From IMG/VR virus record IMGVR_UViG_3300029305_011823: a DNA stretch of 64,000 nt; one strand, written 5' to 3'. Below, piece after piece: positions 34,753 through 58,807 of the stretch; positions within the stretch are counted from its first letter, which is position 1; every line of letters begins with the position of its first letter. The translations under genes and the position numbers were made by a program. A model generated the notes under the pieces. The model did no database searches and was not told the origin of the DNA. It worked only from the letters and a program-made list of their open reading frames with translations. This DNA comes from a virus. Its lineage: Duplodnaviria; Caudoviricetes.

Positions 34753-34830
34753 ATAAATACCTCCTAAAATTTATTATTCATTTACATAATATATAATTGA
34801 TTTGATACCTTTTTACACAAACATTACTAT

Positions 34831-34985
34831 AAGTAGTCATAGGACTACGCTAAGATCTCTCTGAGATCATTAGAATTTTACCTCCAATAAAATTTGATAA
34901 AATATATTTTTTATTTAGTTTTCAAGTACGGAAAAATAGATGTATATAGTGATATGACTTCACTATATACATCTATTTATCTTTT
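34831..34985 (+). ncRNA. Candidate sRNA A with an anti-SD loop
   Basis: AACA-N6-TA at 34820..34831, two 5' hairpins, AATTTTA-CCTCCAA-TAAAATT hairpin, terminator at 34934..34978; no ORF on this strand. Confidence 0.55.
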
Positions 34986-35255
34986 GTTTAGTCTCACATG
35001 CGTATATATCTTATCCACATTGATATAAAAACGTTGGCTTTTTCTACACCAACTCTACACACGATCGACAACATCGCTAATCTCTGCAAAAGCATACGAT
35101 GCATTATGTTATCAGCTGTATAACATAACTAGTTGATGGATTGAATTATCTGGCTCCCTTGTGGTGGAAATCATCTGTACCTGTGGCTACCTAAGGCTTT
35201 CGAACAGTGTTGCAGACACTGAACTGGCACGCTTCTCTGTCCCTTCCATCTCCCT
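34932..35255 (-). ncRNA. Candidate ~320-nt structured RNA
   Basis: AACA-N6-TA at 35255..35266, GC-elevated sequence with many hairpins, no long ORF, ends at a terminator. Confidence 0.6.
34934..34978. terminator. Bidirectional terminator between two convergent non-coding units
   Basis: 19-bp perfect inverted repeat AAATAGATGTATATAGTGA / TCACTATATACATCTATTT. Confidence 0.8.
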
Positions 35256-35281
35256 AATTAGTTGTTATACTATATGAAATT

Positions 35282-35779
35282 TTATTTTCTAAAATTATTT
35301 TTACTATTTTTCATTTTATGTTTTTTATTCATTCTTTTCATTTTATTGTCAGTATATTTTTGTACTTTAACAGATGTCATTAATACATCACTATCTTCAC
35401 AATAACAAGAATGTTCTATTGAGGCAGTTCTCATGTCATTTAATATTTGCAACCCCAAATACATCGAATCTGATTTTATATCTGGCATAACATCTCCTGT
35501 TATATAATTTAGAATTTCATCTCGAAATTCATTTTCATATTCTATTAATAACATATTTATACCCTCTTCTGATATGAACGTCTCATCCTCAATAGTCATT
35601 AAATAATAACCGTTTATATATTCATCTTCATTTATTCTTAATATATCAAGTACATTTCTTAATTCATACCATTTATAACCTAGCTCATCAGTAAATACAG
35701 GTGAATTTACTTCAAATAAACAATATAATTCATTTAGTAGAGTCTCTAGTGTACAGTATTTATTGTTTGAATTGTACAT
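35282..35779 (-). CDS. BRO-N-like domain protein
   Basis: WYELRNVLDILRI...FISEEGINMLL...FRDEILNYITGDVMPDI. Confidence 0.55.
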   Translation of the reverse strand: MYNSNNKYCTLETLLNELYCLFEVNSPVFTDELGYKWYELRNVLDILRINEDEYINGYYLMTIEDETFISEEGINMLLIEYENEFRDEILNYITGDVMPDIKSDSMYLGLQILNDMRTASIEHSCYCEDSDVLMTSVKVQKYTDNKMKRMNKKHKMKNSKNNFRK

Positions 35780-36092
35780 TATATAAGCACCCCACTTTCT
35801 CTATTCTATCTTTAACAAACTCAACAAATTCATCAGTTATCTCAAATACGAAATATTGTCTCCCGTTCTTGTAATCAAAATATTCTCTGAAATACTTTGG
35901 ATATAAATCATTAAAGTGTTCACGTTTGAAATCTATATGTACACATAATTTACCCATTTTACAAGTAGTATTAGGATTTTCTTCGACTGCCAATATCTGC
36001 ATTGCTTTTAACATATAAGTAATACGACCCTTATCAGCATTCACTAATTCTCCTATCATACTATACGGATAGTATCTTACTTCTTCTTCCAT
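35760..36092 (-). CDS. Hypothetical protein
   Basis: 110 aa, RBS AAGGAG, AACA-N6-TA promoter at 36116..36127. Confidence 0.6.
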   Translation of the reverse strand: MEEEVRYYPYSMIGELVNADKGRITYMLKAMQILAVEENPNTTCKMGKLCVHIDFKREHFNDLYPKYFREYFDYKNGRQYFVFEITDEFVEFVKDRIEKVGCLYNVQFKQ

Positions 36093-36137
36093 TTTTCTAC
36101 GCTCCTTTCGTGTTTTAACTATTTGTTTAATAATGAA

Positions 36138-36830
36138 TTATTTTGGATCTGAAACGATTCTCTTCATGAATTCTTCTTGACCTAATAGAGATAAAGGTCT
36201 AAATCCATCTACATCTACATATGTAAACTTAGTTTCTAATAACGAATAGTCTTGACATTCTTTAGAGAATTTAACGATAGATTTTAATTTATCTTTCATA
36301 TCTTGAGGCATATAAGGTTCATACTCTTTATAGAATGTTAACCAATCTCCACGTACATTTTGTACAGGTATAAATAGCATACCTTCATGTACTAACTTAT
36401 GTACTGTAGTAGATAACGGTATTAATCCTACTCTACATTGATAATGTAGTTTCATAACCTCTTCACATACTTCAAATAGATTTATTTCTCCATAATAATC
36501 AAGATGTTTAAGTAATACAGTCATTGTAATATCATATAAAGTAAATGGTGAATGGTGTATCTCAACTTTAAATTTAGAATAATGGTCCATTTTAGAATTT
36601 CCAAAGAAACTACATTTAGTCATATCTATGTATTCTTTTAGATATTTAATATACTCTTTATATTCTAAGCTAGAACGTATCATTCTCTCACATGTTTTAA
36701 CTGTTTTTACTTTATCCTTTTCAGATACTATATTGTAAATCATCTCAACATCTGGAACGTTGTTAATATTGACTTCCTCTATAAGTCTATCGTTTTTATA
36801 ACTTTCTATTTGTTTTGGAACTAATCTCAT
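36138..36830 (-). CDS. HNH-like protein, paralog of 24828..25502
   Basis: EIHHSPFTLYD...LSTTVHKLVH. Confidence 0.6.
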   Translation of the reverse strand: MRLVPKQIESYKNDRLIEEVNINNVPDVEMIYNIVSEKDKVKTVKTCERMIRSSLEYKEYIKYLKEYIDMTKCSFFGNSKMDHYSKFKVEIHHSPFTLYDITMTVLLKHLDYYGEINLFEVCEEVMKLHYQCRVGLIPLSTTVHKLVHEGMLFIPVQNVRGDWLTFYKEYEPYMPQDMKDKLKSIVKFSKECQDYSLLETKFTYVDVDGFRPLSLLGQEEFMKRIVSDPK

Positions 36831-36894
36831 CTTATCACTCTCCTTTTATAAAATTGTAGGTAAGAAAAAAAGATATAACCCGAAGGTTATATCT

Positions 36895-56770: not shown

Positions 56771-56974
56771 TTATATTAATTCTAATTCTATTGCTAGAAA
56801 ATACATTAAATCTAAAAATCCTTCTATTCTTACTCCGTATACTGTTTCATTGTAATCATCTACAGCAACATCTTCTACTATTCCTTCTAAACCTATAACA
56901 AAACTGTCGTCTCCTTCAAGTTTATCATATACAACCTTTACATTATCATTTAAATCAAACATTAATTTTTTCAT
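56771..56974 (-). CDS. Hypothetical protein (SH3-like size and pattern)
   Basis: 67 aa, RBS AAGGAGG. Confidence 0.55.
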   Translation of the reverse strand: MKKLMFDLNDNVKVVYDKLEGDDSFVIGLEGIVEDVAVDDYNETVYGVRIEGFLDLMYFLAIELELI

Positions 56975-57117
56975 ATCGTTTCCTCCTTTAAAATAATATA
57001 TATTTATTGTTATGATATAAATAATATTTCACAAATATAATATATAATTGAAATATTACCTTTTTACACAGAAAAAATACGTCCATGCAAATGGACGTAT
57101 CTTCCTAACCGTATTCT

Positions 57118-57205
57118 AATGATTAACAACTTCTTTTTTCCACTCACCTTTTAGGAAGGTTCGTTTCCTTCTTAGATGCTATCGCATTAAGAAGTTGTTG
57201 GTATG
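57118..57205 (+). ncRNA. Candidate sRNA C: three-way junction with an anti-SD strand
   Basis: Closing stem 57122..57135/57189..57202 and inner stem TAGGAAGG/CCTTCTTA need G.U pairs that form on the + strand; unpaired CCACTCACCTTT. Confidence 0.45.
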
Positions 57206-57287
57206 TTGATAATTAATTATATGGTTTCGCTGAAATTTAATTTATATAACAAGTAATGGATTCGGGAACGTAGAAAAAAATACTAGC

Positions 57288-58358
57288 CTAAGCTAGTAAA
57301 TCAATGTAACCTAAATGATGAGCCATTGATAACATACTACACCATAAATCTTTCTCCATTTCATTTTTATCATTTGGATAATTAAATCCAAAATCTTTAT
57401 GTCTTTTCTTTAATTTATCAAACATTTTATTTGTATCTTTTTGATTTATTTTTTCACCAAATTTAGAAAGTTGATCATTGAGATCATTATATTCACATCT
57501 ATTCTTTTTATTTCTTAATGTGGTATTTTTATTTATGTTTTGGATATAATTACATATATAACATATATGACCAAATATATCTTTGTACTTATACATTATA
57601 TTTGAATTTGTATTAATTTTTATAACAATATCTGAAACTATTTTAGCAAGATCAAATAATATATCTATATCTAATTGACGTATAATATAATTTTGATTAC
57701 ATTGTTCATTTAAACTTGTATTAAGGAAATATTGTGTTAATATAAAGTTAGTTATAAATCCTGAATAAATAGCGGGATCTATAGCTGATAAAGAACTATC
57801 CAACATAGTTAATAAACGTATAACTAATTCAGCAATTGTTTCATTATGATAAGTTTGAATTGTTTCCAATGCTAAATTGTACGTTTCTTCATCTAAATCA
57901 ATATTTTTAAATTTTAATGAATTTGAATAAGCAATATTCGTTTTCTTTGATGTTGAATCTGTATAAATTTCTGTAATAATTAAACTATAATCTTTCGTCC
58001 CATCTTTTCTATTATAAGGTTTTATTTTTGCTTTGAATTTCATAATACTATCGTTAAAGAATAATTCACTATACCAATTTTCAGGAACGTTTATATGAAT
58101 ATGATCATACATAAATCTATTATTAGAATGCACGTTTATAAATGTTATAGGAATACATCCTTTAAAAGCTTTATTTCCAAATTTACCTGTACAATATGCT
58201 GAATATTCATATTCTTCATTACCTTTTTCATATCTTTCTTTTAGATTATAACGTTGGTCGAAATGATTTATTGTTATTTCTCTATTATCAATAACTCCAT
58301 GATTATCACCTATGATATATCCTTTACCAGCAGTTGTAAAATTGTTAAATTCTGACAT
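57288..58358 (-). CDS. Hypothetical protein, possible N-terminal OB-fold
   Basis: 356 aa; DHIHI...FKAKIKPYNRKDGTKDYSL; RBS AAGGAG. Confidence 0.65.
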   Translation of the reverse strand: MSEFNNFTTAGKGYIIGDNHGVIDNREITINHFDQRYNLKERYEKGNEEYEYSAYCTGKFGNKAFKGCIPITFINVHSNNRFMYDHIHINVPENWYSELFFNDSIMKFKAKIKPYNRKDGTKDYSLIITEIYTDSTSKKTNIAYSNSLKFKNIDLDEETYNLALETIQTYHNETIAELVIRLLTMLDSSLSAIDPAIYSGFITNFILTQYFLNTSLNEQCNQNYIIRQLDIDILFDLAKIVSDIVIKINTNSNIMYKYKDIFGHICYICNYIQNINKNTTLRNKKNRCEYNDLNDQLSKFGEKINQKDTNKMFDKLKKRHKDFGFNYPNDKNEMEKDLWCSMLSMAHHLGYIDLLA

Positions 58359-58389
58359 ATTATCACTCTCCTTTATAAAATAAAATAAA

Positions 58390-58614
58390 GGATATGCTCA
58401 TTATGAGCATATCCAAATAAATAATTTATAGTTAAGTTGTGAAGTTAGCTATAGAGACCGTCCTCTATGAGCATACAGTATAGAGACCGTCCTCTATGAC
58501 TGTACATCAGTTCACAACAATTTGATTGAAGTTAGCTATAGAGACCGTCCTCTATGAGCATACAGTATAGAGACCGTCCTCTATGACTGTACATCAGTTC
58601 AACCAAACCTATTT
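58390..58614 (-). ncRNA. Candidate multivalent hairpin RNA: two three-way junctions, four identical hairpins
   Basis: 75-bp exact direct repeat (58440..58514, 58527..58601), 21-mer x4, compensating outer stems, two promoters upstream and a terminator downstream. Confidence 0.7.
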
Positions 58615-58703
58615 AATCTTTTGTTATCACCTTTATAATATATAATTGAAATTTTACCTTTTTACATTTATTTATAAAATTTAATATAGCTTAACAAATT
58701 AAT

Positions 58704-58807
58704 AAGTAAAATGATGAGAGCGGATATGCATCATCTTACTTAAACATCTTACCTCTGAAGTTATTGTTTTTACTTGTCCTATACCCTTTGATTGGGTATA
58801 GGACTTT
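58704..58807 (+). ncRNA. Candidate sRNA D with an anti-SD segment
   Basis: AACA-N6-TA at 58693..58704, 5' hairpin, unpaired CATCTTACCTC, terminator GTCCTATACCC/GGGTATAGGAC-TTT. Confidence 0.55.

Follow-up and report, generated by a model that had tools for sequence, protein, structure and literature searches.

Firmicute small RNAs (sRNAs) with C-rich seeds, such as RsaE/RoxS and RNAIII of Staphylococcus aureus, expose an unpaired C/U-rich motif that pairs with G-rich Shine-Dalgarno (SD) sequences and blocks the initiation of translation. We analyzed a 64,000-nucleotide (nt) stretch of viral DNA (IMG/VR record IMGVR_UViG_3300029305_011823), hereafter the window, which is part of an uncultured AR9/PBS1-like jumbo phage from the bovine gut, and in which an initial annotation had proposed a panel of four phage sRNAs with anti-SD tracts, numbered here units 1 to 4 in their order along the window. 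Upon inspection of the sequence, all four stretches are indeed free of open reading frames (ORFs) and carry the strings that had been quoted for them. The panel as a whole did not hold: unit 3 is a multicopy element of the other strand, and unit 2 has neither a conserved tract nor a target. What is left is a case of two, perhaps three, conserved late phage RNAs that appear to carry an anti-SD seed and can be regarded as a putative variant of the Firmicute C-rich-seed sRNAs. In Pseudomonas jumbo phages, sRNAs that are intergenic or derived from 5' untranslated regions (UTRs) have been mapped, including sRNA005 of 201phi2-1 and the phiKZ sRNA upstream of gp182 (PMC11512511). The late promoters of phage AR9 follow the consensus AACA-(6N)-T(A/G), in which the start site is the last base, and its early promoters follow ATATATTAT-N6-G (PMC5312081).

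By their predicted features, units 1 and 4 would resemble RsaE/RoxS and RNAIII in being stand-alone small RNAs with hairpins, a terminator and an unpaired C/U-rich motif. Unlike these RNAs, they would belong to a virulent jumbo phage, with transcription from a promoter of a phage RNA polymerase (RNAP); the motif is UUACCUC(C/U) rather than UCCC, and the targets would be a class of sites instead of a defined regulon. The Pseudomonas jumbo phage sRNAs are also short and end soon after a phage promoter, and one of them is conserved among related jumbo phages by its position before a conserved gene, the same layout that unit 4 has before an RNAP gene (PMC11512511). These RNAs were seen experimentally and have no proposed seed, whereas the units described here have a conserved seed and are known from sequence alone; in addition, the phage lineage and the promoter type are different, and unit 4 is followed by a second promoter. 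The late AACA-N6-T(A/G) and early ATATATTAT-N6-G motifs of AR9 are the same as those found here, and AR9, too, has late promoters without a gene on their strand; the AR9 study reports late antisense transcripts but not stand-alone anti-SD RNAs (PMC5312081).

The window was compared with three IMG/VR relatives, G1 (227 kb), G2 (228 kb) and G5 (66 kb), and with further relatives comprising two metagenome contigs and twelve ENA contigs, the latter reached via flanking proteins; a profile-based search for the loci yielded no additional ones. The motif AACA-N6-TA, which had been proposed to be a promoter, occurs in the window at 76 sites, 22 of them intergenic, compared to 5.5 expected (a fourfold enrichment), and 16 of these 22 sites are located 18-93 nt upstream of a gene start on the same strand. 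The intergenic enrichment is repeated in G1, G2 and G5. Enrichment, orientation towards genes and identity to the AR9 late consensus all agree with the proposal, and we conclude that AACA-N6-TA is a real late promoter of this phage. A second recurrent motif of the window, ATTATATATTAT-N6-G, is the AR9 early consensus (PMC5312081; PMC7598289). Six late sites are orphans: 34820 (+; unit 1), 35266 (-; a long non-coding RNA (ncRNA)), 47614 (-; unit 2), 57199 (-; the minus strand of unit 3), 58693 (+; unit 4) and 27054 (-). The AR9-type late motif is carried by units 1, 2 and 4 and by the minus strand of unit 3.

Unit 1 is a genuine conserved non-coding unit, as judged by comparison of its homologues. 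It was found in eight phages, all of which share a flanking 165-aa protein with 47-94% identity, and the five closest homologues hardly differ over ~100 nt, from the promoter to the UUUUUUAUUUA run. The late promoter (34820-34831, +; the +1 position is the A at 34831) was assigned from the homologue alignment and the AR9 late consensus (PMC5312081). All eight homologues retain AACA and TA unchanged, whereas few parts of the conserved block vary as much as the N6, as is expected of a functional promoter. The predicted small RNA of ~160 nt (34831-34990, +; fold z-score -7.2) would consist of hairpin 1 (34833-34848), hairpin 2 (34850-34873), a single-stranded tract and a terminator. The tract, UUAGAAUUUUACCUCCAA (34870-34887, +), includes the block UAGAAUUUUACCUCC (34871-34885), which is invariant and predicted to be unpaired. 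The terminator hairpin (34932-34981), an inverted repeat, is predicted to be bidirectional, serving unit 1 on the plus strand and the long ncRNA on the minus strand; the sequence of its stem varies among phages with the pairing preserved, i.e., it covaries. In the two 5' hairpins, 96.8% of the cells are paired and compensatory double changes are present at two pairs; furthermore, eight one-sided changes at five pairs all result in G.U pairs on the plus strand and would be A.C mismatches if the minus strand were the RNA. This pattern of stem substitutions is consistent with a plus-strand RNA.

The same pattern bears on two other accounts of the conservation. The conserved blocks could act as DNA, either as a replication origin primed from the late promoter or as protein-binding sites, with the RNA being incidental. 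A promoter combined with an unwinding element is the layout of the R-loop origins of phage T4, and unit 1, with its promoter followed by an invariant, very AT-rich stretch of 45 nt, resembles this layout. However, stem changes that pair as G.U on one strand, along with compensatory pairs, point to RNA, the GC-skew profile contains no switch at 34.8 kb or at 58.7 kb, and an origin has no need of an anti-SD motif common to two units; a role as DNA is thus unlikely in our view. Alternatively, the tracts could be the ribosome-binding sites (RBSs) of tiny genes on the opposite strand, an outcome that the initial annotation had itself pitted against its proposal. Opposite unit 1, the window does read GGAGGTAAAATTCTA followed by ATG, five codons and a stop, and the six-codon frame is kept in five of the eight homologues. 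Conversely, the ATG is missing in G2 and in the contigs L087 and L088, so that the tract is not merely a micro-ORF RBS; the substitutions track RNA pairing of the plus strand and not codons, and the interval from the terminator to the site has no minus-strand promoter. On the strand opposite unit 4, there is just a three-codon frame with a 4-nt spacing, and this is absent in distant homologues. Taken with the substitution pattern, these observations make the micro-ORF explanation very improbable.

Unit 4, too, is a genuine conserved non-coding unit according to its alignment. Its layout upstream of an RNAP beta-like gene (ATG at 58883) is found in 12 phages, with RNAP identity down to 51%. The late promoter AACAAATTAATA (58693-58704, +; the +1 position is the A at 58704) has a matching promoter in the 12 homologues, in which AACA and TA are invariant and the N6 is variable; it lies upstream of the RNAP ATG by 152-220 nt, or by 180-220 nt if one homologue is excepted. 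The predicted small RNA of ~100-120 nt (58704-58822, +; fold z-score -4.7) would include a 5' hairpin (58704-58741), the tract AAACAUCUUACCUCU (58742-58756, +) and a second hairpin (58776-58804). In the closer homologues, the 5' part is a hairpin of variable sequence; the distant ones have a short ACGGAAA-containing leader in its place. The tract contains UUACCU, the sole invariant block of at least six columns in the 12-way alignment (UUACCUC in 11 of 12 homologues); its unpaired probability is at least 0.9 in the closest homologues, and it is predicted to be unpaired in most homologues. The 3' hairpin shows a compensatory change at six pairs. A second late promoter (58831-58842, +), dedicated to the RNAP gene, lies 40-54 nt upstream of its ATG in all loci, and because of this promoter, unit 4 looks like a stand-alone unit. 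No unit 4-like element was found upstream of the homologous RNAP gene of PBS1. In a more distant phage (contig L081, 2302-2450, +), the unit 4 homologue has an extra hairpin with the loop GAUCACCUCC, which we take to be identical to the conserved core of the 16S rRNA 3' tail.

The common plan that had been described for all four units is complete in units 1 and 4 (promoter, hairpins, exposed conserved tract and 3' hairpin) and fails in units 2 and 3. Both complete units expose an invariant UUACCUC(C/U), 46-51 nt after an orphan late transcription start site (TSS). In the window, G1 and G5, intergenic TACC(T/C)C outside of the complements of annotated RBSs and of hairpin stems occurs in units 1 and 4 only; this was established by a motif screen that replaced a strict terminator screen, which had missed both units. 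G2 carries a third candidate for a late small RNA with this plan (locus L035, 101854-101960, +), comprising a 5' hairpin, CAUAUAAAUUACCCCUU and a terminator. Its tract reads UUACCCC and lies 49 nt after the start; the unit also has a complementarity of 24-35 nt to the SD-to-AUG region of several other G2 sites. Neither unit 1 nor unit 4 was detected in the distant unit 3-bearing fragments G006-G009, which are just 26-57% complete. We consider it quite probable that units 1 and 4 exist as stand-alone transcripts of the plus strand, given the conserved promoters and the strand-specific pairing. The opposite view, that all four units arose by chance, with hairpins, CU-rich strings and a promoter motif of low information content coinciding in AT-rich spacers, might appeal to the 76 AACA-N6-TA sites and to the failure of units 2 and 3. 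It is extremely unlikely, as units 1 and 4 are conserved and covarying, with a fixed geometry, across 8 and 12 phages, respectively.

Under the mechanism that we propose, units 1 and 4 would be small late RNAs transcribed by the AR9-type non-virion RNAP, each with an AACA-N6-TA start, one or more 5' hairpins, the unpaired invariant UUACCUC(C/U) tract and a conserved terminal hairpin. The tract would base-pair with GGAGGUAA-type SD regions, which are over-represented on genes behind early promoters, and the pairing would include the UA after GGAGG, the position at which the 16S tail has a mismatch. Because they would pair with this UA where the 16S tail does not, the RNAs could compete with ribosomes on early-type messages late in infection, and late genes, with mostly AAAGGAG-type sites, would be spared. 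The frequencies of SD classes were calculated for the window, G1, G2 and G5 together; these four genomes are related, and the pooled promoter and RBS counts are pseudo-replicated. The initial observation that early-type genes favour GGAGGTA was reproduced: the site is present in 20 of 33 genes (61%) behind early-type promoters and in 39 of 187 genes (21%) behind late-type promoters (Fisher p = 9e-6). Predicted pairing was stronger with early than with late start regions for the unit 1 tract (p = 3e-4) and for the unit 4 tract (p = 1e-3), whereas a generic 16S tail did not discriminate between the two (p = 0.89). Among all RBSs of the four genomes, GGAGG is followed by TA in 140 genes and by TG in 12, a TA bias that much exceeds the expectation from the composition of 5' UTRs (A 0.45, G 0.17). 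The TA after GGAGG lengthens the pairing with UUACCUCC and mismatches the conserved 16S ...UCACCUCC. The preference for GGAGGUAA-type start regions as a class was seen in all genomes examined, and a blastn-short search for complementarity returned only RBS-type matches. We regard SD occlusion by the RNAs of units 1 and 4 as a plausible mode of action, at somewhat less than an even chance. More tentative still is the broader idea that this clade of gut jumbo phages encodes late mimics of the ribosome tail with altered specificity, in which UUACCUCC would pair two bases beyond the 16S tail on GGAGGUAA sites and withdraw early messages, with AAAGGAG-type late genes staying translatable, i.e., a temporal translation switch based on SD class.

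Several observations, in addition to the pseudo-replication of the counts, weigh against SD occlusion. When only GGAGG-bearing genes are compared, the early/late difference in pairing is weak (p = 0.055 and 0.024); as CCUC in any RNA is enough for pairing with SDs, the statistics are mainly a measure of GGAGG frequency. No orthologous target with consistently top-ranked pairing across genomes was found, and the best-ranked targets of unit 1 differ from genome to genome. Conservation of unit 1 extends over ~100 nt, far beyond the requirement of a seed. The U tract of the unit 4 3' hairpin is interrupted, so that this hairpin is not a canonical intrinsic terminator, and unit 4 invariably adjoins the RNAP gene, which is also compatible with a role in cis; in a close relative, L078, unit 4 is missing while the RNAP gene and its proximal promoter are kept. 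RNA-library contigs from four gut runs over 34000-53999 are fragmentary, of low depth and from mixed strains, and carry information on neither strand nor ends. Support for the switch is circumstantial, as it consists of associations in related genomes that are driven largely by GGAGG frequency. The SD of a helicase gene was tried as a unit 4 target and rejected: it pairs over 10 bp in the window, similarly in G5 and G2, and the pairing is lost in G1.

Some of these observations fit another explanation, namely that units 1 and 4 are real late RNAs in which the tract has a different role. The RNAs could mimic the 16S 3' tail and titrate a protein or nuclease, or serve as a sponge; unit 4 could be a cis leader that tunes the RNAP gene via read-through of the hairpin, and unit 1 could be a partner of the convergent long ncRNA. 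In 12 of 13 loci, unit 4 is syntenic with the RNAP gene, and its hairpin has no canonical U tract, both in agreement with a cis leader; the constant tail-to-tail arrangement of unit 1 with the long ncRNA, with a common terminator, agrees with a partnership. The reach of conservation well past the tract, and the loop of the L081 homologue with its presumed 16S tail core, are also points in favour of another role. Conversely, the RBS of the RNAP gene (AAAGGGUGAG or AAAGGAG type) matches the tract poorly, the gene has its own second promoter, and the relative without unit 4 retains both gene and promoter. Moreover, two unlinked units have the identical exposed motif at an equal distance from the TSS. 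A different role of the tract is a somewhat less probable explanation than the SD occlusion that we propose.

Unit 3 (57068-57202, -) is a multicopy structured element. It is built of an outer helix of 11 bp and two hairpins, one of them small and the other flanked by CGA/GAG. There are 2-4 copies per genome, and 11 distinct copies were collected. The outer helix is formed by AACAACUUCUU and AAGAAGUUGUU and includes one covarying C-G/A-U pair; the small hairpin covaries as well. The inner hairpin has seven different stem sequences, always flanked by CGA...GAG, which can be read as a C-G pair with tandem G.A. An anti-SD tract had been claimed for the plus strand of this unit. The element belongs to the minus strand; ACUCACCUUUU, the tract in question, is complementary to the stem arm that differs in every copy, and is therefore not conserved. 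Judging from these comparisons, unit 3 does not qualify as an anti-SD RNA. In the outer helix, the 5' arm also reads as a perfect AACA-N6-TA on the minus strand, and could be a promoter or a helix arm. Elements of the unit 3 type are also present in four further IMG/VR contigs (L070, L073, L074 and L076). In G1, the element is back to back with unit 4, and in the window, a cassette lies in between (57253-58670), with a gene (57288-58358; 356 aa, no Pfam match), a repeat array and an early promoter. The segment looks like an inserted cassette; in G1, units 3 and 4 abut and the corresponding site lacks it. The G2 homologue of the gene 57288-58358 lies elsewhere, adjoining another copy of the unit 3 element. 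The repeat array (58440-58601, -) consists of two identical 75-nt direct repeats, each with two ACGG-loop hairpins; it is flanked by an early-type promoter (58636-58670) and a terminator (58414-58390), the latter just before the RBS of the gene 57288-58358. The repeats have a weak, sub-threshold Guanidine-II-like match (19.8 bits, compared to a gathering score of 32).

Unit 2 (47478-47614, -) has a promoter-like site, a variable 5' part and a terminator (47491-47532). Promoter-like site and terminator agree with the plan claimed for it, whereas the tract AUCAUCUCUCC is partly in a stem and is replaced by unrelated sequence in G1. The promoter-like site is located directly after the stop codon of the endolysin gene, where the surrounding stretch is in any case 90% identical to G1. 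As a target, we considered the start of a kinase gene, for which the 74-nt 5' part of the unit gives -30 kcal/mol in the window; a shorter seed gives -26.6 kcal/mol, a value that was reached by 5 of 100 shuffles. This target was rejected: the pairing in G1 is -10.1 kcal/mol (rank 144 of 170). From these comparisons, unit 2 is not supported as an anti-SD RNA, and units 2 and 3 are both outside the mechanism proposed for units 1 and 4.

The window is AT-rich (GC ~28%), and near-identical DNA is present in bovine faeces and gut metagenomes; a cultured-phage collection contained no DNA match to it. The genes encode tail fibres, virion proteins, multisubunit RNAP beta-like proteins and an RNase R-like nuclease; for the last of these (48999-51122), RNB, CSD and S1 domains confirm the phage RNase R gene that had been suggested. 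The RNAP protein is 31-36% identical to the RNAPs of PBS1/AR9-like Bacillus phages, Staphylococcus jumbo phages and a Listeria phage. A search of the window for tRNA and tmRNA found none, and the whole window had no match in Rfam 15 at the gathering score, with only sub-threshold, chance-level matches around the units. The long ncRNA (34932-35266, -), which is always tail to tail with unit 1 and shares its terminator, is ~320 nt long and GC-richer and has its own late promoter (AACAACTAATTA-GGGAG), convergent with unit 1. Every relative that was examined has this ncRNA, which exists in at least two sequence types; its start is always AGGGA(G/A), its end is near GUGGAUAAG, and it has no match in Rfam. 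On the other side of unit 1, the early-type promoter of an RNase H gene (ATTATATATTAT-N6-G; 34787-34820, -), assigned from the sequence and the AR9 consensus (PMC5312081), is back to back with the unit 1 promoter. In the contig L086 (2610-2850, -), two tandem, structured-looking elements of ~118 nt (...CTACCTCCTCCTGAGGGTTGGATACTAAG...) lie in the interval that separates the early promoter next to unit 1 from the following downstream gene; such elements are absent from the corresponding site in the window. The orphan promoter 27054 (-) was rejected as an sRNA promoter, as it serves a 41-codon ORF. This segment (26894-27054, -) comprises the late promoter, the ORF, with a hydrophobic N-terminus (MKRLMVMILITGICV...), and then a terminator; the product, under the 50-aa limit of the ORF list, is a small peptide that may be secreted or membrane-bound.

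Half of the proposed panel has turned out to be something else, and unit 3 is a multicopy structured element in its own right. For the other half, the hypothesis specifies two short RNAs, a seed of 7-8 nt and a defined class of target sites. Current explanations of temporal control in jumbo phages invoke two RNA polymerases with their promoters. If the hypothesis is true, there would be an extra conserved post-transcriptional layer that sorts messages by the type of their Shine-Dalgarno sequence. This would also provide a function for small RNAs encoded by phages, for which mapping in other jumbo phages has so far given no role.

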